From Candidatus Rokuibacteriota bacterium (GTDB lineage: Bacteria > Methylomirabilota > Methylomirabilia > Rokubacteriales > CSP1-6): 64,000 bases of DNA. Of the stretch, positions 19,924 through 64,000 are shown in pieces (positions within the stretch are counted from its first letter, which is position 1; each line of letters starts with the position of its first letter). Location: positions 18,580-82,579 of the forward strand of contig QHRX01000007.1 of the NCBI GenBank assembly GCA_003221455.1, in the 5' to 3' direction. The notes below the pieces were generated by a model, which worked only from the letters and a program-made list of their open reading frames with translations, did no database searches and was not told the origin of the DNA. The position numbers and the translations under genes are program-made.

Positions 19924-20277
19924 TCAAAAGGCGGGCCGGGCGCCCGGTCCGACAGCCGCCACCCGGCGCTCGCCCCGGCCAGCATAACAGGACCACACGG
20001 CCAAGAAGAGAGAAAGGTGCAAGCTCGGGCCCCGGGGCGGGGTGCACATTCGAGAGGTCGAGCTCCCGGGACCGCGTGACGCCCGTGTGGTGGTAGAGCC
20101 CGACGGGTAGCCCACGCGGGTGGACACAAACTCCGCCGTCCAGGCGACACCGAGGGTCGACGCGGTAAAGGCGACCGTGCGGCGCCGACCCAGGTCGTGG
20201 AGCGCCAGCACGACGAACGCGGCCATGAACGCAAACACGTACGGCCGCAGCGTGAGCGCGTCGATCAACAGGTCCAT
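19924..20277 (-). CDS. possible small membrane protein or gene remnant upstream of hpnH
   Basis: The translation MDLLIDALTLRPYVFAFMAAFVVLALHDLGRRRTVAFTASTLGVAWTAEFVSTRVGYPSG looks like a genuine TM segment. It then decays into Ser/Thr/Arg/Pro low complexity. It lies in the hpnH/shc divergent intergenic region. Confidence 0.2.
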   Translation of the reverse strand: MDLLIDALTLRPYVFAFMAAFVVLALHDLGRRRTVAFTASTLGVAWTAEFVSTRVGYPSGSTTTRASRGPGSSTSRMCTPPRGPSLHLSLFLAVWSCYAGRGERRVAAVGPGARPAF

Positions 20278-20352
20278 GCGAGCCGGCGCCGTCACGATAC
20301 CCCGAGAGTCAAATTCTCGCAAGCTGACGGGGGTGTGCTAGCATCCGAAACC

Positions 20353-25270: not shown

Positions 25271-26683
25271 CTAGCGGTGCGCGAGGAAGCGGAAGAACTC
25301 GACCCCTTCCCGCAACCGCCGCCGCATCATCTCCGGGCTCTTCACCATCTCCGAGACGAGCGAGGCGACCTTGCCCGGTCGGAAGTAGAAGCGCTTGTAG
25401 AAAGTCTCCACGGAGTCGAAGATCTCGGTGTGCGGCAGGTGCGCGTAGCTGAGCGCACTGACCTGCACCCCGCGGGCGTTCACGAGCGCCTGGCCGTCGT
25501 TCTGCAGCCAGCCGTTCTCTACTGCCTCCCGGTGCATCGAGGTGCCGGGATAGGGCGCGGCGATCGAGACCTGGATCGTGTGCGGATTGATCTCCCGCGC
25601 GTAGCGGATCGTCTCCTCGATCGTCTCCCGCGTCTCGCCGGGAAGGCCAAGGATGAAGGTCCCGTGAATTGTGATGCCGAGCTCGCGGCAGTCCCGCGTG
25701 AACTTACGGGCGATGTCGAGCCGGAGTCCCTTCTTGATATTGTTGAGGATCTGCTGGTTGCCCGACTCGTAGCCCACGAGGAGGAGCCGCAGGCCGTTGT
25801 CCCGCATCACCCTGAGCGTCTCGTAGGGGACGTTGGCCTTCGCGTTGCACGACCAGGTGACGCCGAGCTTGCCGAGACGCCTGGCGATGACCTCGGCCCG
25901 GGGCAGGTCGTCGGTGAACGTGTCGTCGTCGAAGAAGTATTCCTTCACGTGCGGGAAGTACGTCGTGGCCAGCGCGATCTCGTCCGCCACGTGGTCAGGC
26001 GTGCGGGTCCGGTAGCGATGCCCCCCGACGGTCTGCGGCCAGAGGCAGAAGGTGCACTTCGACCGGCAGCCGCGGCCGGTGTAGAGGGAGACGTAGGGGT
26101 GCAGCAGGTAGCCGATGAAGTAGTCCTCGACCCTGAGGTCGCGCTTGTAGACGTCCACCACGAATGGCAGCCGGTCCATGTCCTCGAGCGTGGCGCGCTC
26201 GCGGTTGTGGAGGATGCGCCCATCCGTGCGATAGCTGAGCCCGTCGACGGCGGACAGCGGGCGGCCCTCCGCCACCTCCCGGATCGTGAAGTCGAACTCG
26301 TTACGGGCGACGAAGTCGATCGCCTCCGAGGCCCGGAGCGACGCCTCCGGCGCCACCGCCACGTGCGCGCCCACGAACCCGACCAGGAGCCGGGGGTTCA
26401 TGTTCTTCAAGGCCTCGGCCACGCGGACGTCCGAGGCAAACGATGGCGTGCTCGTGTGCAAGACGCAGACCTCGTAATCCTTGGCGAGCGGCAGGACCCG
26501 CGCGAGCGTGATCCCCGCGGGGGGGGCGTCGATGAGCCGGCTGCCGGGAACAAGCGCGGCAGGCTGGGCGAGCCAGGTGGGATACCAAAACGAGCGGATC
26601 TCCCGCCTCGCCTGGTATCGCGAACCCGCTCCTCCGTCGAAGCCCTCGAAGGAGGGCGGGTGCAGAAACAGCGTCTTCAGCAT
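25271..26683 (-). CDS. hpnJ: B12-binding radical SAM protein, HpnJ-like
   Basis: 470 aa. An N-terminal B12-binding-like domain is followed by the radical SAM motif CRSKCTFC. It lies immediately downstream of the GT2 gene, as in hpnI-hpnJ operons. Confidence 0.7.
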   Translation of the reverse strand: MLKTLFLHPPSFEGFDGGAGSRYQARREIRSFWYPTWLAQPAALVPGSRLIDAPPAGITLARVLPLAKDYEVCVLHTSTPSFASDVRVAEALKNMNPRLLVGFVGAHVAVAPEASLRASEAIDFVARNEFDFTIREVAEGRPLSAVDGLSYRTDGRILHNRERATLEDMDRLPFVVDVYKRDLRVEDYFIGYLLHPYVSLYTGRGCRSKCTFCLWPQTVGGHRYRTRTPDHVADEIALATTYFPHVKEYFFDDDTFTDDLPRAEVIARRLGKLGVTWSCNAKANVPYETLRVMRDNGLRLLLVGYESGNQQILNNIKKGLRLDIARKFTRDCRELGITIHGTFILGLPGETRETIEETIRYAREINPHTIQVSIAAPYPGTSMHREAVENGWLQNDGQALVNARGVQVSALSYAHLPHTEIFDSVETFYKRFYFRPGKVASLVSEMVKSPEMMRRRLREGVEFFRFLAHR

Positions 26684-30283: not shown

Positions 30284-33200
30284 ATGAGCGTCGTCCTGCG
30301 AACCGGCCGCGCGCTCCGGCGACTGGTGCAGGTCGCCACCGCCCGGCCTGCCCTCACCGTCGTCGTCTCGCTGCTCCTCGCCGCGGCGGGCGTCGTCTAT
30401 TCGCTCCAGGAGCTCACGTTCATCACGTCCGGAAAGGACCTGCTCCCCCGCGGCCGCGCCTACGTGCAGCGCTACGCCGAGGACTCCCGGGAGTTCGCCG
30501 ACCCCGATCAGATCGTCGTCGCCGTCCAGGCGCCGCGCCTCGCGCTGGCCAAGGCGTACGCGAGCCAGGTGGCCCACGAGCTCCGGAAGTACCCGGACCG
30601 TTTCGAGCGCGTCGCGTACCGGACGGACCCCAAGCAGTTCGAGGGCCGGGCGCTGCTCTACGCGTCCACGGCGAAGCTCCGGGACATCCGCGACAAGATC
30701 CTCGACCACCAGAGCTTCCTGGAGTCGTTCGCCGCGCGCCCGACCCTCGATCAGCTCGTCGAGAACATCAGCACGCAGATCGGCACCGCCATTGTCACGA
30801 GCTTCTTCGATGTCGGCCTCGACCAGGGCAACAAGGACGTGGACCTCCGCGTCGTCAAGGACTTGCTCGCGCAGATCTCGGCCCGACTGGACTCCCCTTC
30901 GCCGTACCGGTCACCGTGGGGCTCGCTCTTCAGCCCGGACACGGGCGGCGAAGACGACGGCTACTTCCTCTCCGACGACAAACGACTCCTCTTCCTCCTG
31001 GCCGAGGGCGTCGGGAAACGGGGGAGCTTCACCGGGGATCGCGAGGCGATCGAGACGCTGCGCGGGACGATCGCCAGCCTCCGCGACCAGTTCCCCGACG
31101 TGACGGCCGGAGTCACGGGGGGGCCGGCGCTGTCGAACGACGAGATGCTGGCCGCCTTTCGGGACAGCCGGCGCGCCACGCTCCTGGCCTTTGCCCTCAC
31201 GCTCGGGCTCCTGTTGGTGGCGTTTCTCCGCGTGGGCCTGCCGATCCTGATGCTCGCCACGCTCGCGGTGAGCCTCTGCTGGTCGATGGGCATCATCACG
31301 GCGGTCGTCGGGCACCTGTCGATCTTCTCGGTGATGTTCATCTCGATCGTCGTCGGCATCGGGACTGACTACGGGATCTACTTCCTCTTCCGCCACGACG
31401 AGGAGCTGTTCCTCGGCCGCAGTCCGCGGGAGGCGCTCGAGTTGACGGCGGCGCGGAGTGGCCCCGGGATGCTGATCGGCGCGCTGACCGCGGCGGGCAC
31501 CTTCTACGTACTGATGGCGACCGAGTTCCGGGGGATCCAGGAGCTCGGCTTCATCGCCGGCACGTCGATCTTGCTCGCGTGGCTCTCGATGATGACGCTG
31601 TTTCCCGCGCTCATCATCCTGGTCGATCGTCGTCGCCCCGCGCGCGCGCCCGTCCCGATCCCGCGTGTGCTCGAGATCGAGCGGATCCGGGTGCCCTTCG
31701 TCGAGCGCATCATCCGGTACCCGAAGACGGTCGTGACGGCCGCGGCCCTCGCCACCGTCCTCTCGCTGGCGGCGCTGCCCGGCGTCTACTTCGACTACAA
31801 CCTCCTGAACCTGCAGGCCGTCGGCACCGAGTCGGTCGTCTGGGAGAAGCGCATCCTGGCGGCGGGGCGCTCGGGGTTCACCGCGCTCTCGACCGCCGCG
31901 TCCCTCGCCGAGCTCCGCCGGAAGGCGGCCGCGTTCGAGCGACTCCCCTCCGTCTCCGACGTGGATTCGGCGCTCCTGCTCATCCCGGAGGACCAGCCGG
32001 CGAAGCTCGGGGTCATCGGCGAGCTCGCGCCGATCGTCGCGCCCGTCCGCGTCGGCATCCCGGAGCCGGTCGACGTTGACCGGCTCGCCTCCGCGCTGTC
32101 GACGCTCAAGCATCGGTTCGACGTCGCCGCCGGCGAGGCCCCGCCCGGCCCCGATCGCGACGACGCCGCCGCCGTCCGGGACCGGGTCGCGGCGCTCAGC
32201 GCCAAGCTCCAGCGTACGGACCGGGACGTGTCGGAGCCGGCCTTGACCCTCCTGCAGGATCAGGTCTACCGTGACTTTGCCGGCTCTCTCCACCGCCTCC
32301 AGCGGAACCTGCACCCGCGCGAGATCGGGGTGAACGACGTTCCCAGCGAGCTCCGGCGCGAGTTCGTCTCGCCGAGCGGCCGCTTCCTGTTGCAGATCCA
32401 CCCCGGTGTCGACATCTGGGATCGGCACGGCGCCGAGCGCTTCGTCGCGGACCTCCGGAGCGTCGACCCCGAGGTGACGGGCACGCCCATCATCACCTTC
32501 GAGGCGATCAACTACATGGAGCGCGCCTACAAGGAGGGCACGGTCTACGCGTTCCTGGTCGTCACGCTCCTGAGCGCGCTGCTGATCCGCCGGTTCCGCG
32601 AGGCCGCCCTCGGGCTGGTCCCGCTGGTCCTCGGCACGCTCTGGACCGCGGGGCTCATGCAGCTCTTCCGGCTGCCCTTCAACTTCGGCAACGTCTTCGG
32701 GCTCCCCCTGATCATCGGCACCGGCGCCGAGTTCGGCCTCAACGTGGTGCTGCGCTACCTCGAGGGCCGTGAATACGGCGGCCCGCTCATTGCCCGGAGC
32801 ACGGTGATGGCGGTCCTCGTCAACGGCCTCACCACGATCGTCGGCTTCGGCAGCCTGATGGTCGCCGACCACCGCGGGATCTTCGGCCTCGGGCTCCTCC
32901 TCACGCTCGGCATGGCCGCCACGCTGACGGCAGCCCTCGTCGTGCTTCCGGTCCTGCTGCAGTGGAGCCAGCCTCCCCGGCCGTCGTCGGTGTCGCCTGG
33001 CGAGTCGATGGACCGCGCGGTCACCAGCGAGGGAACGGGGAGCGCCGCCCGGTTCCGATCCGTCGCGCCGCTGCCGAGGAGGCCTGTGGAACGCGCCGTG
33101 CTCTTTGACTTCGGCGGGACCCTGGACGCCGACGGGGTGACCTGGAAGGAGCGGTTTGCCCGCCTCTATCGAACCGAGGGCGTCCGGCTGGAGCCCGCGC

Positions 33201-33760
33201 GATTCGACCCGCTCTTTTACGCGGCCGACGACGCGCTCGTCGGCGCGACCCCGCCGACACTGTCGTTTGGCGAGACCGTCTCTCGGCTGGCCGCGGCCCT
33301 CGCCCAGGGACTCGGGCTGGGCGGCGACGACGCATTGGTCCGCCGGGTCGCGAGCCGCTTCCTCGAGGGCGCCCTCGAGGCGCTACGCGGCAACACGCCG
33401 CTGCTGTCGCGGCTTGGCCGCCGATACCGGCTGGGGATCGTCTCGAACTTCTACGGGAATCTCGAGACCGTCTGCGACGACGCTGGAATCCGTGAGCACT
33501 TCAGCGTCATCCTCGATTCGTGTCGCGTCGGATGCCGGAAGCCCGACCCCCGCATCTTCGACCGGGCCGTCGAGGAGCTGGGGATCACGCCGGCCGACGC
33601 GACGTTCGTCGGCGACTCGCCGACCCGGGACATGGCGGGGGCGCGCGCCGTGGGCATGCGTCACATCTGGCTCGCGGGCGAGGAGAGCGGGTCCCGGAAA
33701 CCCTGCTGCCCGGAGGACCGGGTCATCTCCTCCCTGGCCCAGCTGGAGGCGGTGCTGTGA
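30284..33760 (+). CDS. hpnN: HpnN-type RND/MMPL exporter fused in-frame to a C-terminal HAD-superfamily phosphatase domain
   Basis: 1158-aa continuous ORF. Residues 1 to about 880 are collinear with the second HpnN paralog at 41490, with about 70% identity by eye, 12 TM helices and two periplasmic loops. Residues 925-1158 carry HAD motifs: I FDFGGTLD, II IVSNFYGN, III CRKPDP, IV FVGDSPTRD. There is no stop codon between the two parts. Confidence 0.8.
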   Translation: MSVVLRTGRALRRLVQVATARPALTVVVSLLLAAAGVVYSLQELTFITSGKDLLPRGRAYVQRYAEDSREFADPDQIVVAVQAPRLALAKAYASQVAHELRKYPDRFERVAYRTDPKQFEGRALLYASTAKLRDIRDKILDHQSFLESFAARPTLDQLVENISTQIGTAIVTSFFDVGLDQGNKDVDLRVVKDLLAQISARLDSPSPYRSPWGSLFSPDTGGEDDGYFLSDDKRLLFLLAEGVGKRGSFTGDREAIETLRGTIASLRDQFPDVTAGVTGGPALSNDEMLAAFRDSRRATLLAFALTLGLLLVAFLRVGLPILMLATLAVSLCWSMGIITAVVGHLSIFSVMFISIVVGIGTDYGIYFLFRHDEELFLGRSPREALELTAARSGPGMLIGALTAAGTFYVLMATEFRGIQELGFIAGTSILLAWLSMMTLFPALIILVDRRRPARAPVPIPRVLEIERIRVPFVERIIRYPKTVVTAAALATVLSLAALPGVYFDYNLLNLQAVGTESVVWEKRILAAGRSGFTALSTAASLAELRRKAAAFERLPSVSDVDSALLLIPEDQPAKLGVIGELAPIVAPVRVGIPEPVDVDRLASALSTLKHRFDVAAGEAPPGPDRDDAAAVRDRVAALSAKLQRTDRDVSEPALTLLQDQVYRDFAGSLHRLQRNLHPREIGVNDVPSELRREFVSPSGRFLLQIHPGVDIWDRHGAERFVADLRSVDPEVTGTPIITFEAINYMERAYKEGTVYAFLVVTLLSALLIRRFREAALGLVPLVLGTLWTAGLMQLFRLPFNFGNVFGLPLIIGTGAEFGLNVVLRYLEGREYGGPLIARSTVMAVLVNGLTTIVGFGSLMVADHRGIFGLGLLLTLGMAATLTAALVVLPVLLQWSQPPRPSSVSPGESMDRAVTSEGTGSAARFRSVAPLPRRPVERAVLFDFGGTLDADGVTWKERFARLYRTEGVRLEPARFDPLFYAADDALVGATPPTLSFGETVSRLAAALAQGLGLGGDDALVRRVASRFLEGALEALRGNTPLLSRLGRRYRLGIVSNFYGNLETVCDDAGIREHFSVILDSCRVGCRKPDPRIFDRAVEELGITPADATFVGDSPTRDMAGARAVGMRHIWLAGEESGSRKPCCPEDRVISSLAQLEAVL

Positions 33761-40243: not shown

Positions 40244-41221
40244 GTGCGCTACGTCCACTCCCTCCTCTTCCTCCTCGGCGCGGCGCTCCTGGTCGTCCTC
40301 GTCGCCCGCAACGACCCGACCGCGATCGCCGCCGCGATCGCCCGACTCTCGTGGCGGATTCTCGTCGTGCTCTGTTTCCCGATCACGCTGGCGACGCTGT
40401 TCGACACGCTCGGCTGGCACTTCGCGTTCCGGCGCGACCGCGTCGCCTTCCGCACGTTGGTGTCCGCCCGGCTCGCGGGCGAGGCCTTCAACGTGACGAC
40501 GGCGTCCGTCGGGGGCGAGGCGGTGAAGGCGTGGTTGCTCCGCCCGTCGGTGCCGCTCGGCGAGAGCCTGCCCTCGCTGATCGTCTCGAAGACGACCATC
40601 ACGATCGCCCAGGGTCTCTTCCTCCTCTTCGGCGTCGCCCTCGCGTGGCGGACCGCCCGCCCGGACTCGCCGGTCCTCTACGGGATGGAGGTCCTGCTGG
40701 TCGTCGAGGTCGTCGCGGTGGCCGGTTTCGTCGCCACCCAAGTCTTCGGGCTGATCGGGCGCGCGGGGCGGCTGCTCGGCCGGCTCGGCACGCACGTCTT
40801 CGGCGCCCGGGACACCCTGGTCCAGGTCGACGACGTGCTCGTGCGCTTCTATCGCGAAGAGCCGCGGCGCCTCGCCCTCTCGATCGCCTGCCATTTCGTC
40901 GGCTGGCTGGTCGGTTCCGTCGAGGCCTACCTGATCCTGCGCTTCCTCGGCGTGGGCGTGTCGCTGACCACCGCGACCGTGATCGAGGCCTTCGGCACCG
41001 CGGTTCGGTTCGCGACCTTCGTGATCCCGGCAAGCCTCGGCGCCGCCGAGGGCGGCTACCTCGTGACGTTCCTCGGGTTCGGCCTTGGGTCGACCGCCGC
41101 CGTCTCGTTCAGCCTGGTCAGGCGAGTCCGCGAGGGGACGTGGGCGGCGATCGGACTCATCATCTTCGCGGTGATGCGCCGCCGGACCGATTCGACGGCG
41201 GCCCTCACCGCCGCGGGCTGA
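40244..41221 (+). CDS. lysylphosphatidylglycerol-synthase-TM/UPF0104 flippase-like membrane protein (HpnL-like)
   Basis: 325 aa with about 8 TM helices. ...WRILVVLCFPITLATLFDTLGWHFAF... is typical of the family. Confidence 0.6.
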   Translation: MRYVHSLLFLLGAALLVVLVARNDPTAIAAAIARLSWRILVVLCFPITLATLFDTLGWHFAFRRDRVAFRTLVSARLAGEAFNVTTASVGGEAVKAWLLRPSVPLGESLPSLIVSKTTITIAQGLFLLFGVALAWRTARPDSPVLYGMEVLLVVEVVAVAGFVATQVFGLIGRAGRLLGRLGTHVFGARDTLVQVDDVLVRFYREEPRRLALSIACHFVGWLVGSVEAYLILRFLGVGVSLTTATVIEAFGTAVRFATFVIPASLGAAEGGYLVTFLGFGLGSTAAVSFSLVRRVREGTWAAIGLIIFAVMRRRTDSTAALTAAG

Positions 41222-41489
41222 CGCTCCGTCACGGACGCGACGCCCGTGGCCGCGCGCGGCCGCCCCACCCCTCGACCGGCCCGGCGCCCCGTCGACCGCG
41301 CGCGGCCACGGCACGGCTCCGAGCCCGACGACGTCGCAGGGCAGGCGGCCCAACGCCGGGGGGCGGGCGGCACGGGCCAGCTATGATACGGTTAGGGTAG
41401 ATGGGGTCTCGCGTTGCGGCTCGCACGGCCTCGCGCGCCGACGCGGCGCACGATGGCCGACCGGCGAGCCTCAGGCGAGGTCGGCGGGG

Positions 41490-44249
41490 ATGAGCGTCGC
41501 ATCGCGGACGGGCCGCGCACTGCGGCGGCTCGTGCAGGTCGCCTGCGCGCGGCCCGTCCTGACCGTCGGCCTCAGCGCCCTCTTCGCCCTCCTGGGTGTC
41601 GTCTACTCCTTCCGCGAGCTCACGTTCATGACCGCCAGCCGGGACCTCCTGCCTCCCGGCCAGGCCTACGTGCTGCGCTACAACGAGTACCTCAAGGACT
41701 TCGGCGACCTCGACGAGATCGCGGTCGTCGTCGCGAGCCGAGATCTGGCCGTAGCCAAAGAGTACGCGAGCCGCCTCGGCCGCGAGCTCCGGAAGTATCC
41801 GGCTCAGTTCCAGCGGGTCGCCTACCGCATCGACCCCGAGCGCTTCGAGGGCCGCGCGCTCCTGTACCTGCCGGTGGCAAAGCTCAAGGAAATCCGCGAC
41901 AGGATCTTCGCCTACGAGGACTTCCTCGAGTCCTTCGCGGCACGCCCCGCCCTCGACCAGCTTGTCGACAACGTCAACACCCAGGTCGGCAACGCCATCG
42001 TCTCGAACTTCTTCGACCTCGGCTTGAACGGCGGGGGCACCGCAGGCGACCTCCGGTTCCTCGAGAGCCTGCTCGGGCAGATCTCCACGCGACTGGACCG
42101 GCCGGCGCCCTACCGGTCGCCCTGGGGCCCACTGCTCTCGCTCGACGTCCACGGCGAGGCCGACGGCTACTTCCTTTCCGACGACCAGCGCCTGCTCTTC
42201 ATCCTGATCGAGTCGAAGGGCGAGAAGAGCAGCTTCACCGGCGACCGGGACGCCATCGAGACGCTCCGGGGCACCATCGCGCGTCTACGCGACGAGTTCC
42301 CCGCCGTGGACGTGGGCGTCACCGGGATGCCGGCCCTCTCGAACGACGAGATGGTCGCCGCCTTCCGAGACAGCGAGCGCGCCACGATCCTGGCCTTCGC
42401 GTTCACGCTCGGCCTCCTGCTCCTGGCGTTCCTGCGGGTGGGCCTGCCGATCCTGATGCTGGCGACGCTGGCGGTGAGCCTCTGCTGGTCGATAGGCGTC
42501 ATCACTCTCGTGGTCGGGCATCTGTCGATCTTCTCGGTGATATTCATCTCGATCGTCATCGGCATCGGGATCGACTACGGGATTTACTTCCTCTTCCGGC
42601 ACGACGAGGAGCTGTTCCTCGGTCGGGGCCAGCGCGAGGCGCTCGAGATCACCGCGTCGCGGAGCGGTCCCGGGATCCTCATCGGCGCGCTCACCGCGGC
42701 CGGTACCTTCTACGTGCTGATGGCTACCGACTTCCGCGGCATCCAGGAGCTTGGCTTTATCGCCGGGACCGCGATCCTCCTCGCGTGGCTATCGATGATG
42801 ACCCTGTTCCCGGCCCTCATCCTCCTCGTCGACCGCTCCCGCGGCCAGCGCCCACGCGGCCCGGTGCCGCGGGCGATCGAGCTCGAGCGGATCCGCGTCC
42901 CGTTCATCGAGCGGTTGACGCGCTACCCGAAGACCGTCGTCACGGCGGCGTCCGTCGCCACCGTGCTCTCGTTGCTGGCCTTCCGCGGCGTCTACTTCGA
43001 CTACAACCTCCTGAACCTGCAGGCGCCGGGCACGGAGTCCGTGATCTGGGAGAAGCGGGTGCTGGCGAGCGGGCGCTCCGGCTACAGCGCGCTCGCGAGC
43101 GCGGGATCGCTCGCCGAGCTTCGCGCGAAGGTGGCCGCCTTCGAGCGGACGCCGGCCGTCTCCCAGGTCGACTCGGCGCTCCGGCTGCTCCCGGCCGACC
43201 AGGCAGAAAAGCAGAAGGTCCTCGCGGAGATCGCGCCACTCGTCGCGCCGGTGCGGATCGGCGTGGCCGAACCCGTCGATGTCGACCGGCTCCAGGCGGC
43301 GCTCGCGCGACTCCGGCACCGCTTCGACGTCGTGGCGGGTGCCGCGCCGCCCGGCCCCGATCGCGACGCGGTCGCCGGCGTCCGCGATCAGGCCGCCGTG
43401 CTGATCCAGAAGCTCCGGGTGGCCGACCGCGAGATCGCGGAGCCGGCGCTGAACCACCTCCAGAACCAGATCTATCGGGACTTCATGAGCAGCCTCCACA
43501 CCCTCCAGCGGAACCTCCACCCGCGCCCGGTCGGCGTCGGCGACGTGCCCGACGAGCTCCGGCGAAAGTTCATCGGCCGGAGCGGCCGATTCCTGATCCA
43601 GATCCATCCCAGAGGGGACGTCTGGAGCCGAGCGGGCGCCGAGGCCTTCGTGAGGGACCTCCGGAGCGTTGACCCCGGCGTGACCGGCACTCCGATCATC
43701 TCCTTCGAGGCGATCCGCCGCATGGAGACGGGCTACAAGCAGGGCACGCTCTACGCGTTCATCCTGGTCGGCCTCCTGAGCGCGCTGCTGATCCGCCATG
43801 TCCGCGAGACCGCCCTGGCGCTGCTGCCCCTGGGCCTCGGCACGCTTTGGACGGTCGGCCTCATGTACGTCTGCGCGCTGCCGTTCAACCTCGGCAACGT
43901 CTTCGGGCTCCCGCTGATCATCGGCGCCGGCGCCGAGTTCGGCCTCAACGTCGTGCTGCGCTACCTGGAGGGCCGCGAGCACGACGGCCCCCTCGTCGCC
44001 CGGAGCACCGTGATGGCGGTTCTCGTCAACGGGCTCACCACCGTCGTCGGCTTCGGCAGCCTCATGGTCGCCGATCATCGGGGGATCTTCGGGCTGGGCC
44101 TCTTGCTGACGCTCGGCATGATCGCGACCCTCACCGCTTCGCTGATCGTCCTGCCGGTCATGCTGCGGTGGGGCCGGCCCGGCCGGCCTCATCCCTCCCG
44201 GCTCGGCGAGCCCGCGCTCGAGCCCACCGGCGCCGAGGCCGACCGCTAG
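41490..44249 (+). CDS. hpnN: HpnN-type RND/MMPL hopanoid exporter (paralog 2, unfused)
   Basis: 919 aa with an MMPL/SSD architecture. It is collinear with the N-terminal 880 aa of the gene at 30284. Confidence 0.85.
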   Translation: MSVASRTGRALRRLVQVACARPVLTVGLSALFALLGVVYSFRELTFMTASRDLLPPGQAYVLRYNEYLKDFGDLDEIAVVVASRDLAVAKEYASRLGRELRKYPAQFQRVAYRIDPERFEGRALLYLPVAKLKEIRDRIFAYEDFLESFAARPALDQLVDNVNTQVGNAIVSNFFDLGLNGGGTAGDLRFLESLLGQISTRLDRPAPYRSPWGPLLSLDVHGEADGYFLSDDQRLLFILIESKGEKSSFTGDRDAIETLRGTIARLRDEFPAVDVGVTGMPALSNDEMVAAFRDSERATILAFAFTLGLLLLAFLRVGLPILMLATLAVSLCWSIGVITLVVGHLSIFSVIFISIVIGIGIDYGIYFLFRHDEELFLGRGQREALEITASRSGPGILIGALTAAGTFYVLMATDFRGIQELGFIAGTAILLAWLSMMTLFPALILLVDRSRGQRPRGPVPRAIELERIRVPFIERLTRYPKTVVTAASVATVLSLLAFRGVYFDYNLLNLQAPGTESVIWEKRVLASGRSGYSALASAGSLAELRAKVAAFERTPAVSQVDSALRLLPADQAEKQKVLAEIAPLVAPVRIGVAEPVDVDRLQAALARLRHRFDVVAGAAPPGPDRDAVAGVRDQAAVLIQKLRVADREIAEPALNHLQNQIYRDFMSSLHTLQRNLHPRPVGVGDVPDELRRKFIGRSGRFLIQIHPRGDVWSRAGAEAFVRDLRSVDPGVTGTPIISFEAIRRMETGYKQGTLYAFILVGLLSALLIRHVRETALALLPLGLGTLWTVGLMYVCALPFNLGNVFGLPLIIGAGAEFGLNVVLRYLEGREHDGPLVARSTVMAVLVNGLTTVVGFGSLMVADHRGIFGLGLLLTLGMIATLTASLIVLPVMLRWGRPGRPHPSRLGEPALEPTGAEADR

Positions 44250-45805: not shown

Positions 45806-46261
45806 ATGGCAAAGCGGATTCTTGTCCCTCTCGATCGAAGGACGGCCAGCGCGGCGATCCTGCCGCTCGTGGCCGACGTTGCACGCGGCGCCGGCCCGAC
45901 CCTGCGGCTGCTCCACGTGGCGCCGGTGCCGGACGCCGTCGAGAGCGAGGACGGTCGCGTGATCGCGTACGCCGACCAGGAAATGGCGAGGCTCGAGAGC
46001 GAGGGGCACGAGTACCTCGACGGGCTCGCGGCCAGCCTGCCGGACGTCGCCGTGGAGTGCGTCGTGCGCTTCGGCCAGCCGGCGCGCGAGATTCTCGTCG
46101 AAGCCGAGGCCTGGGATGCCGACCTCATCGCGGTGACGGCGACGCGGACGCGGTGGTTCGACCGGATCCGCCGGCGCGGGGTGGCGGATCGGGTCTTCCG
46201 CCGGGCCTCGGTTCCCGTCCTCGTCTACCGATCGGGCGCGGTCGACTCCGCCGCGCGCTGA
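45806..46261 (+). CDS. universal stress protein (UspA family)
   Basis: MAKRILVPLDRRTASAAIL...DLIAVTATRTRW...SVPVLVY... Confidence 0.7.
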   Translation: MAKRILVPLDRRTASAAILPLVADVARGAGPTLRLLHVAPVPDAVESEDGRVIAYADQEMARLESEGHEYLDGLAASLPDVAVECVVRFGQPAREILVEAEAWDADLIAVTATRTRWFDRIRRRGVADRVFRRASVPVLVYRSGAVDSAAR

Positions 46262-48375
46262 CCGTCCTCGGGGCCGACGCGCTCGATCTCGACCAGGTTC
46301 GAGTGCAGCGCGGGCCCGCCTCCCAGGTCGCTCACCCGGTCGCTGGTGAGCACGTTGACGCCGCGGCCGCCCCGCTGGAAGCGATGCCACCAGATCCCCT
46401 CGATGACGGCCACGCCCGTCCGCGTGTCGTCAGTCACCTCGGCGGTGAACACGGCGGAGCCCCGGTCGTTGTAGACGCGGACCCGGTCACCGTCGGCGAT
46501 CCCCCGCGCGCCCGCGTCGGCCGGGGCGACGAAGACGCTCGGCCGCTTCTGCCGTGCGCGCAGGAGCTCGGACTGACTGAAGGACGAGTTCAGGAAGAAG
46601 CGGTTGGGCGGCACGATGCACTGGAGCGGGTAGCGCCGGGCGAGCTCGGGGTGGTCCGGGCCCTCGGCGAGTGGTGTGTAGGTCGGCAGGGCCGGGTGGC
46701 CGAGCGCCTCCAGGGTCGGCGAGTAGAACTCCACCTTGCCTGACGGCGTGGGGGCGCCTTCCGCGAAGGGCAGATACGGCCGCGGCAGGTTGAGGCGGAC
46801 CGAGCGCTCTTCCCGGAGCCGCTCGAACGTGATACCGGCGAGGCTCGCGTCGCCCGAGGCGAGGAGCTCGCGGATCAGCTGTTCCTCGGTCTTCTCGAAG
46901 TGCGGGTCGTCCAGCCCCAGGGCGCGGGCCAGCCGACGGAACACCTCCCAGTTGGGCTTGGCCTCGCCGAGCGGCGGGATCACGGGCTCGGCCAGCTGGA
47001 CGTAGAGGTGCCCGAACGACTTGTAGAGATCCATGTGTTCCAGCGACGTCGTGGCGGGCAGCACGAGGTCGGCGTAGCGCGCGGTGTCGGTCATGACCTG
47101 CTCGTGCACGACCGTGAAGAGGTCGGCGCGCGCCAGCCCGCGGAGGACGAGCTCCTGGTTGGGACAGACCGCGGCCGGGTTGGAGTTGTACACGTAGAGC
47201 GACTCGATGCGCGGGCGCAGGCGCTCGTCCGTGAGCGCCCGACCCAGCTGGATCATGTTGATCACGCGCGGCGCCGGTCGCGGCATCAGGTCGGGCCGCT
47301 CGAGGACGGCGAGGTCGAAGCCGAACGCGTCCGTGGACGAGAGGAGCGCCCCGCCATTCGGGTCGGCGTAGGCGCCGGTGAGGGCGGGCAGGCACGCGAT
47401 CGCCCGGCAGGTCATCCCACCGTTGTCGTGGCGCGACAGCCCGATTCCGGCCCGGATGAAGCTCTTCCGGCTCGCGCCGTATCGCCGGGCGAAGCGCACG
47501 ATCGTGTCGACCGACAGCCCGACCACCGGGGCCACCGCCGCCGGCGCAGACGCGGCGAGGTGCGGCACGAGCCGGTCGAACCCGCTCGTCGCGCGATCGA
47601 CGTATGCGCGGTCGACCAACCCGTCCGCGACCAGCACGTGCATCACCGCCAGCGCCAGCGCGCCGTCGGTGCCGGGCCGAACCATCAGGTGCTCGTCGGC
47701 CTGCTTCGCGGTGCGCGTCCGGTAGGGATCGATGCACACGACCCAGGCGCCCCGCTCCCGCGCGCGCCGCACGAGCGTCATCACGTTGATCGTCGTGTAG
47801 GCCGCGTTGATGCCCCAGAGGACCACGAGGTCGGCGCCGATCATCTGCTCGGAGTCGTTACCGGTCACCGTCCCCACCGTGGCCCTCCAGCCGGCGTAGG
47901 CGGTCGAGACGCAGATCGTCCGGTCCAACCGGCTTGCGCCGAGCGCGTGGAAGAAGGGGTGACCCGCGTGGTACTGAACCCGCCCCATCGTCCCCGCGTA
48001 GGAGAAGGGCAGGATCGCCTCCGCCCCGCTCCGGGCGATGACCCCACGCCACCGGTCCGCGATCTCCGCGATCGCCGCCTCCCACGAGACCCGCTCAAAC
48101 TCGCCCCGTCCCTTCGGCCCGGCACGTCGGAGCGGGGTCGGGATCCGCAGCGGGGAGTGGACGCGCTCTTGGTACTCATGGACCTTGCCGCAGATCACGC
48201 CCTGCGTGAATGGATGGTCGGGGGCGCCGGTCACGTCGACCACCCGCCCGTCGGCGACCGTCACCACGAGGGCACACGCCGACGGACAATCGTGCGGGCA
48301 CACCGACTTCACGGCTGGCGTCTCCTCCGTCTCCCCCGCACTCCGGCCGCCGGGGAGTCCGAGCTGCCCGCCCAC
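46225..48375 (-). CDS. cytoplasmic molybdopterin oxidoreductase (DMSO-reductase superfamily; NasA/FdhF/YdeP-like)
   Basis: The N-terminal 4Fe-4S motif is CPHDCPSACAL...C. MopB and molybdopterin-dinucleotide-binding domains are present (...VVLWGINAAYT...). There is no Tat signal. An in-frame Cys occupies the active-site region, not TGA. Confidence 0.75.
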   Translation of the reverse strand: MGGQLGLPGGRSAGETEETPAVKSVCPHDCPSACALVVTVADGRVVDVTGAPDHPFTQGVICGKVHEYQERVHSPLRIPTPLRRAGPKGRGEFERVSWEAAIAEIADRWRGVIARSGAEAILPFSYAGTMGRVQYHAGHPFFHALGASRLDRTICVSTAYAGWRATVGTVTGNDSEQMIGADLVVLWGINAAYTTINVMTLVRRARERGAWVVCIDPYRTRTAKQADEHLMVRPGTDGALALAVMHVLVADGLVDRAYVDRATSGFDRLVPHLAASAPAAVAPVVGLSVDTIVRFARRYGASRKSFIRAGIGLSRHDNGGMTCRAIACLPALTGAYADPNGGALLSSTDAFGFDLAVLERPDLMPRPAPRVINMIQLGRALTDERLRPRIESLYVYNSNPAAVCPNQELVLRGLARADLFTVVHEQVMTDTARYADLVLPATTSLEHMDLYKSFGHLYVQLAEPVIPPLGEAKPNWEVFRRLARALGLDDPHFEKTEEQLIRELLASGDASLAGITFERLREERSVRLNLPRPYLPFAEGAPTPSGKVEFYSPTLEALGHPALPTYTPLAEGPDHPELARRYPLQCIVPPNRFFLNSSFSQSELLRARQKRPSVFVAPADAGARGIADGDRVRVYNDRGSAVFTAEVTDDTRTGVAVIEGIWWHRFQRGGRGVNVLTSDRVSDLGGGPALHSNLVEIERVGPEDGQRAAESTAPDR

Positions 48376-52360: not shown

Positions 52361-52696
52361 CTAGCCGACGAGGCGCGACAGAAGGCCGCGGCTGCGGGCG
52401 ACGAGCCAGTAGCCGGCCTCGACCAGCCAGCGGAGCGGCGGCCGGGCGCAGACTGCCGCGAGCCGGCGCCAACCGACCTGGTCCAGCGCGTACAGGCTCG
52501 CTCGCCCCCCGCTCAGCACCTCGCCCTCGGAGGTGATGACGTGGACGGCGCGCGCACACCGCAGGGCCAGCTCGTCGGTCATCGGCGGGCGCGGCGCTTC
52601 CTGAAACGGCACGGCGTGGAGCCGGTCGTGGACGTCCTGTCGCTTGACCCAAGCGACCGCGCGGCGGCAGACGCCTCAGCCGCCGTCCCACAAGAG
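52361..52696 (-). CDS. DUF393/DCC-family thiol-disulfide oxidoreductase with in-frame TGA (candidate selenocysteine, UxxC) at the first redox-motif position
   Basis: The listed ORF starts downstream of the motif. Reading the same frame upstream gives ...AWLLWDGG-TGA-GVCRRAVAWVKRQDVHDRLHAVPFQEAPRPP.... This matches the family N-terminus (LFYDGxCxLCRRxV...RLRF.P.QS) if TGA encodes Sec or Cys. A possible TTG start is at LLW; coordinates carry 1-2 nt uncertainty. Confidence 0.45.
52639..52657 (-). other. candidate bacterial SECIS-like hairpin 18 nt downstream of the in-frame UGA
   Basis: The mRNA reads GUCGCUU-GGGUC-AAGCGAC: a 7-bp perfect stem with a 5-nt loop containing GGUC. Bacterial SECIS apical loops conserve a G-U pair. 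Confidence 0.3.
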
Positions 52697-52752
52697 CCAG
52701 GCCTGCTCGGGCCGGTGCCCACCCGACGCGGCCGCGGGGCGGGGGGTCGCCC

Positions 52753-53529
52753 TCAGGTCCGCGGGCCGAGCGCGGTGAGGCCGCCGTCGACGATGATCGT
52801 GGCCCCGGTCACCGCGGGCGTCGTCGCCAGGGAGAAGATCGCGTCCGCGGTCTCCGTGGTCGTCGGCAGCGCGGCCGTGGGCGTGATCTTGGCGGTGGCT
52901 TGCCGCTGCGCCTCGGTCCAGCCGCCGAACCCCGTCGCCGCCAGCGCCGGCGCCCCCGCGTTGACCCGGATGGAGGGGGCGAGGGCGCGCGCCAGCGACT
53001 TCGTGAGCGCGCCCAGCGCGGCCTTCGACGCCGCGTACGCCATCGAGGACCCCTGCCCCGTGAATGCGGCCACCGAGGTCACGTTGACGATCGCGCCGCC
53101 GCCGCGCCGCTCAATCTGCGGCACCGCCGCCCGGACGCAGTAGAAGGCGCCCTTGACGTTGACGGCCCACACGGTGTCGAGGATGTCGTCGGTGAGACCC
53201 GCGAGATTCCGGTGGGGCTGGACCGGCTTCGTCCAGCCCGCATTGTTCACCAGGATGTCGAGCCCGCCCAGCTCCGTCGCGACGCGCGCGACCATCGCCG
53301 TGACCTCGAGCTCCCGGGCGACGGTGGCCCGGACCGCGATCGCCCGGCCGCCCGCCTCCCTGATCTCCTCGACCGCCTTCGCGGCGGCCGCCTCGTTCTT
53401 CGAGAAGTTCACGGCGACGGCGGCGCCCGCCCGCGCGAACGCGAGCGCCGCCCCGAGGCCGATGCCGGTCGAGCCGCCGGTCACGAGGACGACCTCGCCC
53501 CGCAGCTCGGCCCCTCCGCGCCCCGTCAC
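52753..53529 (-). CDS. short-chain dehydrogenase/reductase (SDR, FabG-like)
   Basis: GTG start at VTGRGGAELRGEVVLVTGGSTGIGLG (TGxxxGxG). NNAG is present, and the catalytic YxxxK is ...SMAYAASKAAL.... I trimmed the listed ORF. Confidence 0.8.
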   Translation of the reverse strand: MTGRGGAELRGEVVLVTGGSTGIGLGAALAFARAGAAVAVNFSKNEAAAAKAVEEIREAGGRAIAVRATVARELEVTAMVARVATELGGLDILVNNAGWTKPVQPHRNLAGLTDDILDTVWAVNVKGAFYCVRAAVPQIERRGGGAIVNVTSVAAFTGQGSSMAYAASKAALGALTKSLARALAPSIRVNAGAPALAATGFGGWTEAQRQATAKITPTAALPTTTETADAIFSLATTPAVTGATIIVDGGLTALGPRT

Positions 53530-60536: not shown

Positions 60537-61445
60537 TCACGGCCGCGGGCGCACGACGCGATGCCAGCGCGGCGCCCTGGCGAGCCGCGTCCGGCCGTCG
60601 ACGAGCCGCGCATGGACGATGTAGCCGGGCCGATCCGGCCGCGCGTAGCCACGCTCGAGCGCGGCCACGTCGAGGTCGACCGTGCCCAGGTCCTCGAGCG
60701 CTACCGTGTCGGCCGGCGACGGCGCGAGCGTGGTCACCGTCTTGAGATAGCCGCGGCACGCCGCGCAGGTATCGACCTTCCGCGTCTCGCCGTGCGAGTC
60801 CGACACGAGGGAGCCCAGACGCGCGTGATCGGTCTCGCCGCAGTACACGCAGGAGCGCCATTCCGCCCGCCAGTCACCGCCACAGCGCGCGCAGCGGAGC
60901 CGCCGGCTCGGCGACAGGCCGCGCACCTCGGTCAGGGCCGGCCACGCCCCGCACAGCGGGCAGTAGCCGTAGGACCACGCCTCGGGCAACTGGTCGGCGA
61001 GCCGGCGAGCGCACGCCTGGAGGAGAGGCATCGCCGCGAGCCCGCCGAGGGCCGCCAGAGCCTTCGGGTCGGCGCCGGCGCCCGCGGCCAGGCGGGTAAG
61101 GGCGTCCGTGTCTTGGCCGACGACCACCTGGAGGAACTCGTGGGGATCAAGGGCGGAGGCCGCAGGGCCGAGCGACCCGGCGGCCCGCCCGCCCTCGCGA
61201 GCGGCCGCCTCCAGCAGACGCCGCACCCACCGCCGCCCGAGGGAGCGGTCGACGGCGATTTCGGCTCCGGCCAGGATGGGGGCGGTCTCGGGTCGCGCCG
61301 GGTCGAGCTGCGGCGCGATCGTGTCCCACGCAGAGTCGTTCACCGCGGCGATCGTCGCCTCGAGCAACCGGAGCCAGGACCGCCACTCAGGGGTGCCGCG
61401 ACCGAGGCGCTCGAGGCGCTGGCGGGCGTGCTCCGGAACTCTCAC
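60537..61445 (-). CDS. fdhE: formate dehydrogenase accessory protein FdhE
   Basis: Four CxxC pairs are present (YCPLCGAWPALTE..., LRCARCGGDW, CVYCGETDHARL, CAACRGYLK), diagnostic of FdhE. It lies downstream of the fdnGH-like genes. Confidence 0.75.
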   Translation of the reverse strand: MRVPEHARQRLERLGRGTPEWRSWLRLLEATIAAVNDSAWDTIAPQLDPARPETAPILAGAEIAVDRSLGRRWVRRLLEAAAREGGRAAGSLGPAASALDPHEFLQVVVGQDTDALTRLAAGAGADPKALAALGGLAAMPLLQACARRLADQLPEAWSYGYCPLCGAWPALTEVRGLSPSRRLRCARCGGDWRAEWRSCVYCGETDHARLGSLVSDSHGETRKVDTCAACRGYLKTVTTLAPSPADTVALEDLGTVDLDVAALERGYARPDRPGYIVHARLVDGRTRLARAPRWHRVVRPRP

Positions 61446-61656
61446 CGGTGGCCGCGGGCGGGAGGCTAGCGGCCCGCGCCGCGGAGCGGTGTTCCGTAGA
61501 AGGGCCGCGAGCCTTCGTGCAGCTGGACGACGGCGTCGCGGTTTCCGATGTCGGCGCCGGGCCCGCCGCCGCGCGTCCGCGTCGCTTCGGGGCTCCGGCA
61601 GGCCAAGGCCCCGGTGAGGACGAGGGGCAGGAGCAGGAGCCGCGCGGACCTGATGG

Positions 61657-62541
61657 CTAGACCGCCTCCGCGGCCAGCACGATCACGACGCGGAGCATGA
61701 AGCCGCCGACGACCACGAGGACCGCCGCCGCGGGCGCGGTCAGGCTGCCGAGCAGGTCCGGCCGCCAGTGGAGCGCCAGCGGCGCCACCAGGCCGGCGAG
61801 AACCACGCCGAGAAGGAGAACGCCCCAGGCGCTCACCCATACCCGCGCCACCGGGCCGAGCGACAGGACGAAGGCGATGAGCGCCAGGAGCTCGAGCACG
61901 ATGAGCCACCGGTCCATACGGGCGAGTCGGGCCATCGAGGATGAGCCGACGCCCTGCCAGCGGCCCAGCAGGATCAGCGCGGCCGCCGCGATCGAGTTGG
62001 CCGACACGAGAAAGAGGAAGCCCAGCAGGGGCGTGTCGGACCAGACCGGCCGGTTGGTGACGGCGAGCAGGACGCCCGTGTACCCGGCGAGGAAGAAGGC
62101 GCCGAGCCCGCCGAGCCCGGCGATCAGCCGCGCCAGGGGCCCGTGCCGCAGCACGGAGAGCGCAGCCGGTGCCCGGCCCGACTCGGCGAGCGCGCCCAGG
62201 AACGACAGGAACGCCAGGCCGCCGAAGGCCAGCAGCCCCCACGACCCCACCGACATCGGCGACCAGTATTTCAGGATCGGCCACCCGCGCTCGGACATGA
62301 CGAGCATGTGCCAGAAGCGCTCGGGCCGGGTCAGGTCCCCGATCAGCAGCAGGCCGCCGATGCCGACGGCCGGCAGCGCCACGTAGTAGCCGAGCCGGGC
62401 CAGCCCGCGGTCCGAGGCGTCGCCGAAGAAGTCGGCGAGCACCGCGATCAGATAGCTTCCCCCGGCGAGGCCGCCGAAGAAGAAGTAGAGGATCACGAGC
62501 CACTGCCAGTGCGGCGGCGCCGTGAAGAAGGTGTCAGACAT
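61657..62541 (-). CDS. NrfD/PsrC-family integral membrane quinone-interacting subunit
   Basis: 294 aa with 8 TM helices. ...HWQWLVILYFFFGGLAGGSYLIA... is the NrfD/PsrC N-terminal signature. It overlaps the upstream ferredoxin gene by 8 nt. Confidence 0.75.
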   Translation of the reverse strand: MSDTFFTAPPHWQWLVILYFFFGGLAGGSYLIAVLADFFGDASDRGLARLGYYVALPAVGIGGLLLIGDLTRPERFWHMLVMSERGWPILKYWSPMSVGSWGLLAFGGLAFLSFLGALAESGRAPAALSVLRHGPLARLIAGLGGLGAFFLAGYTGVLLAVTNRPVWSDTPLLGFLFLVSANSIAAAALILLGRWQGVGSSSMARLARMDRWLIVLELLALIAFVLSLGPVARVWVSAWGVLLLGVVLAGLVAPLALHWRPDLLGSLTAPAAAVLVVVGGFMLRVVIVLAAEAV

Positions 62542-63349
62542 TCCGTCTGCCTTCGCCGCGCGTTGCCCCGTTCTCTTCCATCCGGCGCTGGCGGAAGCTC
62601 ACGAGCCCCACGAGCCCGACCAGCAGCGCGCCGAGGCCGGACCAGAGCGAGCCCGGCACGAGGTTCCGGGAGGGCAGCTTGGGGGCGGCCGGGAGCCCGT
62701 ACACCTCCGGCCGGTCCTCGAGCAGGTAGAACGAGTTGAGCCCGCCGAGGATCGTCTCGTCGTCGCCGTAGAGGTAGGCCCGGGTCCGCCCCTGCCCCTG
62801 GAGCCTCTCGACCCGCGCCCGCGCCGTCCGCCGTAGGCTCGCGATCGGCCCGAACTTGATCGACTCGGTCGGGCAGGCCTTGGCGCAGGCCGGGGTGAGC
62901 CCGACCTGCATCCGGTCGTAGCAGAGCGTGCACTTCTGGGCCGTCCCCGAGACCGGGTTGGTGCCGATCACGCCGAACGGGCAGGCGGCGATGCAGTCGC
63001 GGCAGCCGTTGCAGACGTTCGACTGGATGACCACGGTGTCGAACTCGGTCCGGATGATGGCGCCGGTCGGGCAGACCTCCAGGCACCCCGCCTGGACGCA
63101 GTGTTTGCAGACGTCGCTCATCATGAGCCAGCGGCCGCCCTCGCGGTCCGCGGCGAACTGCTCGACGAACTTGACGTGCCGCCAGTGGATGCCGTCGAGC
63201 TGGCGGGTGTTGTCGTAGCTGTGACCGCTGAGCGTGTTGGCGCCGCCGTCGGTCGACGGGAGCTGGTTCCACTCCTTGCACGCGACCTCGCACGCCTTGC
63301 AGCCGATGCAGACCGTCGTATCGGTGAAGAACCCCATCGGCTCTGGCAT
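62534..63349 (-). CDS. four-cluster 4Fe-4S ferredoxin subunit with C-terminal membrane anchor (FdnH/FdoH-like)
   Basis: CIGCKACEVAC, CKHCVQAGCLEVC, CNGCRDCIAAC and CTLCYDRMQVGLTPACAKAC are present, plus a C-terminal TM helix (LWSGLGALLVGLVGLV). Confidence 0.85.
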   Translation of the reverse strand: MPEPMGFFTDTTVCIGCKACEVACKEWNQLPSTDGGANTLSGHSYDNTRQLDGIHWRHVKFVEQFAADREGGRWLMMSDVCKHCVQAGCLEVCPTGAIIRTEFDTVVIQSNVCNGCRDCIAACPFGVIGTNPVSGTAQKCTLCYDRMQVGLTPACAKACPTESIKFGPIASLRRTARARVERLQGQGRTRAYLYGDDETILGGLNSFYLLEDRPEVYGLPAAPKLPSRNLVPGSLWSGLGALLVGLVGLVSFRQRRMEENGATRGEGRRNV

Positions 63350-64000
63350 CAGGCCTTCTCCACGCTGCAGACGAAGGCCTTACTCTCGTGGATCGACACG
63401 TTGGGGTCGGCGACGAGGGCCGAGAGATCGTTCACCACGTCCCCCGTGACCACCCCCTGGTAGCCCCAGTGCCACGGCATCCCGACCTGGTGGATCGTCT
63501 TGCCGTTGACCGTGAGCGGACGCATCCGCCCCGTGACCAGCGCCTTGGCGCGCGCCGAGCCGCGGGGCGTGCGGATGGTGACCCAGTCGAGGTTCCGGAT
63601 CCCGTGCTCCGCGGCCAGCTCGGGCGAGAGCTCGACGAAGAGTTCCGGCTGGAGCTCGGCGAGCCACGGGAGCCACCGGCTCATGACGCCCGTGAGGTGA
63701 TGCTCGGTCAGCCGATAGGTCGTGAGGACGTGCGGGAAGCGGGCGTCCCCTACGGCCGCGAGCTCGTTGTCCCCGCGCTTCCAGTACTTCAGCACCGGGC
63801 TCGCCTGCTGCTTGTAGAGGGGGTTCGCCACCGGCGACTCGGCGGGCTCGTAGTGGGTCGGGAGCGGCCCGTCGAGGAGCCCGGCGGGGCTGAAGAGCCA
63901 CCCCTTGCCGTCGGGCCGCATGATGAACGGGTCCGCCCCGGAGTGCGCGTCGAGGCCGATCCCGCCGGGCTTGCCGGGCGTGCCGGGCGCCTTCCCGGTC
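63349..64000 (-). CDS. formate dehydrogenase-N-type molybdopterin catalytic subunit, C-terminal part only (gene runs off window end)
   Basis: The molybdopterin-dinucleotide-binding C-terminal domain reads ...ELFVELSPELAAEHGIRNLDWVTIRTPRGSARAKALVTGRMRPL...WHWG.... The reading frame continues to position 64000 without a start. Confidence 0.7.
   Translation of the reverse strand, partial: TGKAPGTPGKPGGIGLDAHSGADPFIMRPDGKGWLFSPAGLLDGPLPTHYEPAESPVANPLYKQQASPVLKYWKRGDNELAAVGDARFPHVLTTYRLTEHHLTGVMSRWLPWLAELQPELFVELSPELAAEHGIRNLDWVTIRTPRGSARAKALVTGRMRPLTVNGKTIHQVGMPWHWGYQGVVTGDVVNDLSALVADPNVSIHESKAFVCSVEKA

Follow-up and report, generated by a model that had tools for sequence, protein, structure and literature searches.

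An in-frame TGA in a DCC1-like gene of an uncultured Rokubacterium: a probable UxxC selenoprotein with a compact SECIS-like hairpin

Does an in-frame TGA separate a short hypothetical gene of an uncultured soil bacterium from meaningless upstream sequence, or does it encode the selenocysteine (Sec, U) of a longer redox protein? The question is raised by a 64,000 nt stretch of contig QHRX01000007.1 (positions 18,580 to 82,579), referred to here as the window, to which all coordinates without a locus name belong. On its minus strand, gene finders call an open reading frame (ORF) of 83 aa at 52612..52361, with a GTG start and a TAG stop (52363-52361). The product, PYM39423.1, which has the locus tag DME17_01290, is annotated as a 'hypothetical protein', and the NCBI source of the exact 83-aa product is a Candidatus Rokubacteria metagenome-assembled genome (MAG). 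A preliminary description of the window, made from the DNA alone, proposed that the called ORF is the remainder of a DUF393/DCC-family oxidoreductase, with TGA at the first Cys of its CxxC motif and a hairpin resembling a bacterial Sec insertion sequence (SECIS) downstream. Those of the checks suggested with the proposal that could be carried out all favoured it, and our comparative analysis leads us to regard the gene as encoding, very probably, a DCC1-like selenoprotein of the UxxC type with a compact in-frame SECIS. We also lean, though only slightly, towards a wider interpretation. In this interpretation, DCC1-like (DUF393) proteins would form an uncatalogued selenoprotein family, common in soil Rokubacteria and their neighbours, in which one 19 nt in-frame SECIS decodes either one UGA (UxxC) or two UGAs 9 nt apart (UxxU, a diselenide centre). 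The second position would have switched repeatedly between U and C, and the window lineage would start translation at a CTG overlapping the upstream stop.

Read directly on the minus strand, the frame upstream of the 83-aa ORF runs ...HRPEQAWLLWDGG-TGA-GV-C-RRAVAWVKRQDVHDRLHAVPFQE..., so that the motif across the TGA is W-D-G-G-U-G-V-C. In alignments with full-length homologues, the TGA (52678-52676) occupies the column of the invariant first Cys of W-D-G-x-C-x-x-C, and is the proposed Sec codon at the first, nucleophilic position of UxxC. The TGC at 52669-52667 encodes the second, resolving Cys (C30) and falls in the invariant second-Cys column. The called ORF therefore lacks the N-terminal redox motif and the TGA lies exactly at the first Cys, as had been claimed. 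When U was treated as C, the read-through product matched Pfam PF04134 (DCC1-like, formerly DUF393) almost from end to end (profile positions 1-112 of 113, 58 bits), which bears out the family assignment. The 83-aa ORF alone scored 25.7 bits, under the curated gathering score of 27.8 bits. A search against the NCBIfam models gave no match, placing the gene outside the curated NF04xxxx selenoprotein families.

A protein search recovered 85 homologous protein clusters. Full-length members are 119-140 aa long and read YWLFWDGDCGFCRR, and the close Cys homologues of the window protein reach 60-68 % identity. About half of the clusters are calls of 72-105 aa with starts that vary just past the motif (MVAWVK, MPFQE, MTDEL), a pattern that we attribute to gene callers halting at an in-frame TGA. 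The proposed coding region of the window gene, 52361..52756 on the minus strand, would comprise 131 codons if the CTG at 52756 is its start, with Sec at codon 27. Its 3' end is certain, in agreement with the span of 52361-52700 given previously, while the 5' end of that span appears too short, as the gene probably reaches ~52756.

The redox codons were read in the DNA of the window and of 83 loci whose motif could be resolved, three of them from genomes and 80 from metagenomes. Among the window and these loci, 18 genes carried TGA at both positions, 17 (the window gene included) carried TGA followed by a Cys codon (TGY), and 46 carried TGY at both, a count that excludes one spurious second match in L043. 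Two further genes with both TGA codons come from the ENA contigs ERZ25039588 contig_2821, of 1.45 Mb, and ERZ25039602 contig_22963, of 467 kb. In total, 36 of the 82 related loci have TGA at the first Cys codon and 46 have TGY, so that both U and C occur at this position among homologues; no locus of the 82 had the reverse arrangement, TGY followed by TGA (CxxU). The protein identity of the 36 TGA loci spans 52-98 %, and no further internal stop was present in any locus, nor any frameshift in the Sec-type loci. TGA is the sole stop codon one step from TGY. The absence of TAA and TAG at the redox codons is consequently weak evidence; the strong evidence is that TGA recurs in genes that are intact in other respects.

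The UxxU form was found in 20 of the 36 TGA loci (L001:4070-4084, L002:2002-2016, L088:5902-5916, L089:5932-5946 and 16 others), where the codon corresponding to C30 is itself TGA. For example, L001, from a Rokubacteria MAG, reads gcc TGA gac ctc TGA cga, and L002 reads gcc TGA ggg ttc TGA ggg. In each case a single hairpin follows the two TGA codons, which have a spacing of 9 nt. The UxxC motif foreseen for the window gene stands, but UxxU in so many of its relatives had not been anticipated.

Patterns of substitution indicate that the DNA on either side of the TGA is translated. The ratio of nonsynonymous to synonymous substitution rates (dN/dS) for the segment 3' of the TGA was 0.15 between the window and L009, 0.16 for L012 and 0.27 for L014; against distant Sec loci it was 0.2-0.6, with dS up to and above 1. 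Each of the 27 distinct Sec loci retains the motif W[LFV][LF]WDG just 5' of the TGA, even at saturated dS, and HRP[ED]Q[AT]W, also 5' of the TGA, is kept across the wider clade of the window gene. The segments flanking the TGA are thus evolving together, as parts of a single translated protein, and this argues against both a pseudogene and a gene for a C-terminal fragment. The further lesions that would mark a decayed gene were not found; there is no other stop, and selection is purifying.

The putative SECIS lies within the coding sequence at 52657-52639 (minus strand), where it encodes V-A-W-V-K-R, using GCU and CGA, both rare codons. The 19 nt element, GUCGCUU/GGGUC/AAGCGAC, has a 7 bp stem, a GGGUC loop and a predicted stability of -10.1 kcal/mol, and begins 18 nt past the TGA, exactly as first described. 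The loop is 25 nt from the UGA and 16 nt from the second redox codon. In the published model of bacterial SECIS elements, the stem has 4-16 bp and the loop 3-9 nt with a G in its first two positions, the UGA-to-loop distance is 16-37 nt and the minimum free energy (MFE) is no higher than -7.5 kcal/mol (PMC13188914, Fig. 2). The window hairpin fits this model in its stem (7 bp), loop (GGGUC), distance (25 nt) and stability (-10.1 kcal/mol).

Comparison across loci showed that the hairpin co-varies. When the 27 distinct Sec loci (14 UxxU and 13 UxxC) were aligned without gaps, 96.3 % of stem cells were paired and three pairs had changed on both sides, an outcome seen in 0 of 500 shuffles; sliding the 3' arm by 1-3 columns as a control reduced pairing to 18-50 %. 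Compensatory variants keep the stem while altering the peptide, as in GCCGCUU...AAGCGGC (L002 and L040; AAWVKR) and UCCGCCU...AGGCGGA (L084; SAWVRR). All seven pairs form in 14 of 14 distinct UxxU loci (mean -10.5 kcal/mol), and the 13 UxxC loci form a mean of 6.5 of 7 pairs, against a mean of 3.6 pairs and -3.2 kcal/mol in the 41 CxxC loci. In Cys-type genes with a nearly identical peptide (L003 VAWVER, L027 VAWVKH, L019 VAWIKQ), the codons are common ones and the stem does not form. Conservation at synonymous sites was 92 % inside the hairpin and 63 % in its flanks, and the hairpin contains rare codons in most loci: GCT (2.2 % of Ala codons in 24 window genes) in 22 of 27, and CGA, which accounts for 6.4 % of the Arg codons of the same genes, in 23 of 27. 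The likeness to a SECIS noted at the outset is therefore accompanied by co-variation and by an association with the TGA. Orthologous loci have the hairpin, and most Cys forms have lost it.

A neighbour-joining tree contains an all-Cys clade, of the VEWAERRD type, and a mixed clade that interleaves UxxU with UxxC forms and has five CxxC forms nested within it. Pairing has been lost in three of the five nested Cys forms and is kept in L021 and L049. The position of these two loci inside the Sec clade, with the hairpin intact, fits recent Sec-to-Cys reversions.

Independent information on UGA decoding in this organism comes from a formate dehydrogenase operon, fdhD-fdnG-fdnH-nrfD-fdhE, which runs across the window's right-hand boundary (60537-64000, minus strand; L006:1-4108). 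The preliminary description had placed an FdnG/FdnH/NrfD-like/FdhE operon in the window and, as this enzyme is usually a selenoprotein, considered Sec machinery plausible in the organism. The operon is indeed there, with FdnH at 62534-63349, the NrfD-like gene at 61657-62541 and FdhE at 60537-61445, all on the minus strand. However, the fdnG gene for the FdnG-type alpha subunit (63349-64000, minus strand) is cut by the window end, leaving its last ~217 codons, and its Sec codon lies outside. We read this codon on overlapping contigs with an identical FdnH. On contig L006, which is 99.7 % identical to window positions 61279-64000, gene callers have split fdnG into 205 and 853 aa at an in-frame TGA (...ENQARI-U-HSSSVPG). 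In solved 'selenocysteine-containing' formate dehydrogenases, the position aligned to this TGA is that of Sec (HQARI-X-HSPTV). The identity of L006 to the window and the UGA at a canonical Sec site suggest that the population decodes UGA as Sec, in line with that expectation. After the fdnG UGA there are 10 nt and then GCGUCCCC-GGUCU-GGGGGUGC, a hairpin read by eye where the MFE fold differed, whose loop has GGUC in common with that of the DCC gene. We rejected a genome-wide reassignment of UGA, since TGA terminates 19 of the 24 window genes and is an ordinary stop there.

Two other regions considered for FdnG were rejected: 6896-10201 is an EF-G-like gene following a TAG stop, and 41175-44249 is an MMPL transporter. 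A second molybdopterin oxidoreductase, of the cytoplasmic type (Fe4S4, Molybdopterin and Molydop_binding domains), is encoded at 46225-48375 on the minus strand. No in-frame TGA was found in this gene, which indicates that its product is of the Cys or another type and not a selenoprotein.

A number of observations weigh against the interpretation of the DCC gene as a selenoprotein, and we consider them together. The stability of the single-sequence fold was ordinary relative to dinucleotide shuffles (z = -0.25 and -0.20) in a context of 71 % G+C, and some MFE folds of the region pick other pairings, so that the significance of the hairpin comes solely from comparison across loci. In L009-L013, the closest relatives, stem pair 6 is a G.A mismatch and the hairpin, at -6.3 kcal/mol, misses the threshold of -7.5 kcal/mol. 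The mismatch arises from a synonymous GCT to GCG change (for example L009:966-984) in L009, L010 and L012, which have 94-96 % nucleotide identity to the window and whose hairpin is left with a 5 bp stem and a 9 nt loop. The UxxC locus L044 (T-U-AF-C, L044:2539-2640) forms no hairpin, the codons for its VAWAEK pairing at 4 of 7 positions; it may use another SECIS or may be a real pseudogene. The association between hairpin and TGA (Mann-Whitney p = 2.5e-11) ignores phylogeny, and most Cys forms belong to one separate clade. The distance from UGA to loop is 25 nt in the DCC gene and 18 nt in the fdnG of the same organism, the latter as read by eye. None of the 33 window ORFs scanned, representing 64 kb of the genome, is a sel gene, and no tRNA genes, including those for tRNA-Sec or tRNA-ReC, were detected in the window or in 40 loci. 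Finally, the window and loci L008-L011, L013 and L014 lack any ATG or GTG in the interval from the SDR stop upstream to the UGA, and no clear Shine-Dalgarno sequence accompanies the CTG that remains.

This lack of a canonical start in the window lineage, which the original gene model had not foreseen, is not typical of the family. Most Sec loci have an ATG or GTG 10-19 codons before the first UGA, and L020 has a GAGGTG Shine-Dalgarno sequence. L012, 93 % identical to the window, has an ATG at codon -17, a position occupied by GCG in the window. The sole near-cognate start common to the window lineage is the CTG at 52756-52754 (minus strand), which overlaps the TGA stop (52755-52753) of the SDR gene in the sequence cCTGA. 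We rejected a TTG at 52693-52691 (codon -5) because it is found in the window and L008 and is absent from L009-L014, and because a start there would cut off strand 1 and the conserved HRPEQAW segment. Given the purifying selection in the window lineage, we infer that translation probably begins at CTG 52756, possibly coupled to termination of the upstream ORF. L014, at 87 % nucleotide identity, carries a deletion between its VOC/glyoxalase and DCC genes that spares only the last ~100 nt of the SDR gene and the CTGA (L014:2862-2986). Retention of this tail suggests that the stretch matters for expression of the DCC gene.

How far do these data discriminate between Sec insertion and other fates of the UGA? 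The main live alternative is that the codon is recoded, with the help of SECIS and SelB, as Cys by tRNA-ReC (SelC*), which would make the product an ordinary CxxC DCC protein reached by an unusual route. In some bacteria tRNA-ReC does decode UGA as Cys given a SECIS, and it is significantly commoner in genomes with UxxU-type hydrogenases (PMC13582414); many of the DCC relatives are likewise UxxU. The existence of such decoding also counts against Sec. On the other hand, the same population retains UGA at the catalytic position of FdnG, which normally carries Sec, and long-kept TGA and hairpin with repeated switching between U and C is the pattern of true selenoprotein families. No tRNA-ReC was seen in a scan limited to ~64 kb and short loci. 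On balance we consider Cys recoding unlikely. Lower still is the probability we attach to the hairpin being no SECIS at all, but a by-product of the peptide VAWVKR or some other RNA element, with the UGA read by near-cognate suppression. The hairpin does lie in a conserved part of helix 1, it forms in the Cys loci L021 and L049, and a search of the region against Rfam returned only noise-level miRNA matches (E >= 0.8). However, the Cys forms L003, L027 and L019 encode the same or a similar peptide with common codons and no pairing, the three compensatory pair changes alter the peptide (AAWVKR, SAWVRR) and keep the stem, and L021 and L049 sit where recent reversions would be expected.

The remaining explanations deny that the UGA is translated. 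A TGC to TGA nonsense mutation combined with loss of the start could have inactivated a DCC gene in the window lineage, and the missing canonical start and the single step between TGA and a Cys codon, which deprives the absence of TAA and TAG of much force, are compatible with such a pseudogene. We nevertheless consider this explanation largely refuted and very improbable, as the same codon is TGA in all 36 loci with no other stop or frameshift, dN/dS within the window lineage is low (0.15-0.27, L014 included), the hairpin co-varies and uses rare codons, and an ATG or GTG is in place in most other Sec loci. It is just as improbable, in our judgement, that the UGA is a true stop and that the functional product is an 83-aa C-terminal fragment translated from GTG 52612 or nearby, the upstream similarity being a relic. 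Gene finders and NCBI do call the 83-aa ORF, and its base composition is of the coding type. Against this, the predicted fold would lose strand 1 and the redox motif, along with helix 1 and strand 2, in such a fragment, which also falls under the Pfam cut-off; the called starts differ among relatives, with none conserved, and conservation at the protein level extends before and across the TGA.

If the UGA is read as Sec, as we favour, the product would be a DCC1-like thioredoxin-fold oxidoreductase of ~130 residues with Sec27 as its attacking residue. The UGA at 52678-52676 would be read by SelB carrying Sec-tRNA(Sec), and SelB would be recruited by the in-frame hairpin at 52657-52639, the G-rich apical loop of which lies 25 nt past the UGA. 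In the UxxU relatives the same hairpin, 16 nt past the second UGA, would serve as one SECIS for both codons. By analogy with UxxC selenoproteins of thioredoxin fold, the U27 selenolate could attack a disulfide or other oxidized substrate and form a selenenylsulfide with the resolving C30, and the UxxU relatives could cycle through a diselenide.

An AlphaFold model was made for the Cys homologue P0003 (64 % identical to the window protein). With a mean predicted local distance difference test (pLDDT) score of 86.5, it has the order strand-CxxC-helix-strand-helix-strand-strand-helix, followed by C-terminal helices. Strand 1 is WLFWD, the CxxC opens helix 1, and helix 2 contains an invariant third Cys. 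The best matches in a PDB fold search with this model were of thioredoxin fold (mycoredoxin-1, glutaredoxins and thioredoxins), and were weak, with E >= 0.02 and template modelling (TM) scores of 0.35-0.45. In the window gene the third Cys is the TGT at 52556..52558 (minus strand), within RCARAVHV of predicted helix 2. It is invariant in the Sec and Cys forms of the subfamily and could be a further redox or substrate-binding residue.

The genomic context gives no clue to function. The DCC gene is accompanied by SDR, VOC, NUDIX and malate synthase genes in the window, and elsewhere, in L088 and L089, by Ldh_2 and CoA-transferase genes, or by cupin and PMT_2 genes; the neighbourhood is kept only among close relatives. 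Apart from these loci, the window contains a hopanoid-type gene set (12733-13731, 20197-22251, 25271-26683, 30284-33760 and 41490-44249) comprising a squalene-hopene cyclase, a B12-binding radical SAM enzyme and LytB/IspH, together with two MMPL transporters, of which one has a fused HAD hydrolase domain.

A review of May 2026 lists 119 prokaryotic selenoprotein families and subfamilies with domain identifiers (PMC13188914, Table 1). PF04134 is absent from that table and from a 2022 review (PMC9312934). Searches of full text in an incomplete library gave no record of DUF393, DCC or PF04134 as a selenoprotein, although an earlier mention, for instance in the supplementary tables of large surveys, is possible. 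A literature search on selenoproteins of Rokubacteria yielded nothing related. The candidate would add PF04134 to the ~119 known families, and the selenoproteome of its source, an uncultured soil phylum, is barely described. It also points to a systematic mis-annotation, as about half of the public protein clusters of the subfamily are short 'hypothetical' or 'DUF393' calls without the active site. Sec at the first CxxC position would be strong natural evidence for the identity of the catalytic nucleophile of DCC proteins, the function of which is poorly defined. Additionally, the interleaved UxxU, UxxC and CxxC forms with one fixed, very small SECIS may offer a natural test system for the action of SelB on two close UGAs, and for the tolerance of two different spacings, 16 and 25 nt.

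The nearest known relatives are the Cys-type DCC1-like/DUF393 oxidoreductases (PF04134), such as YuxK of B. subtilis and DCC1 of Arabidopsis. These belong to the same family and share the predicted placement of the motif, after strand 1 at the start of helix 1, but the window gene differs from them by a UGA at the first Cys and an in-frame SECIS-like hairpin, and many of its relatives by UGA at both positions. Work by Shchedrina and colleagues in 2007 reportedly described SelL as a thioredoxin-fold selenoprotein with a UxxU diselenide. Like the UxxU DCC relatives, SelL combines UxxU with a thioredoxin-like fold; unlike the window gene, which is UxxC, it is eukaryotic and peroxiredoxin-related and has its SECIS in the 3'-UTR (untranslated region).

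Parallels are also found among bacterial selenoproteins. The UxxC thioredoxin-fold selenoproteins (thioredoxin, glutaredoxin, DsbA-like and thiol:disulfide interchange proteins; PMC13188914) also have Sec first in a CxxC-type motif, a SECIS directly 3' of the UGA within the ORF, and a mosaic of Sec and Cys orthologues. The DCC protein is distinguished from them by its family, PF04134 rather than PF00085, PF00462, PF01323 or PF13098, and by its extra C-terminal helical part and invariant third Cys. The coexistence of UxxC and UxxU within one family is known from the Prx-like thiol:disulfide oxidoreductases (PF00578; PMC13188914), and likewise from the metal-binding protein NF041115, the FmdB family and the Group 4 [NiFeSe] hydrogenases. 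In the Prx-like and other bacterial UxxU families, one downstream SECIS has been proposed to serve two UGAs 9 nt apart (PMC13188914, PMC2398784, PMC13582414), as we suggest for the UxxU DCC genes. These protein families are unrelated to DCC, and in the Group 4 hydrogenases it is CxxU that predominates, a form not found in the DCC loci. The DCC genes would thus represent a selenoprotein family new to the catalogues that we checked, whereas the kind of system to which it belongs is well known.

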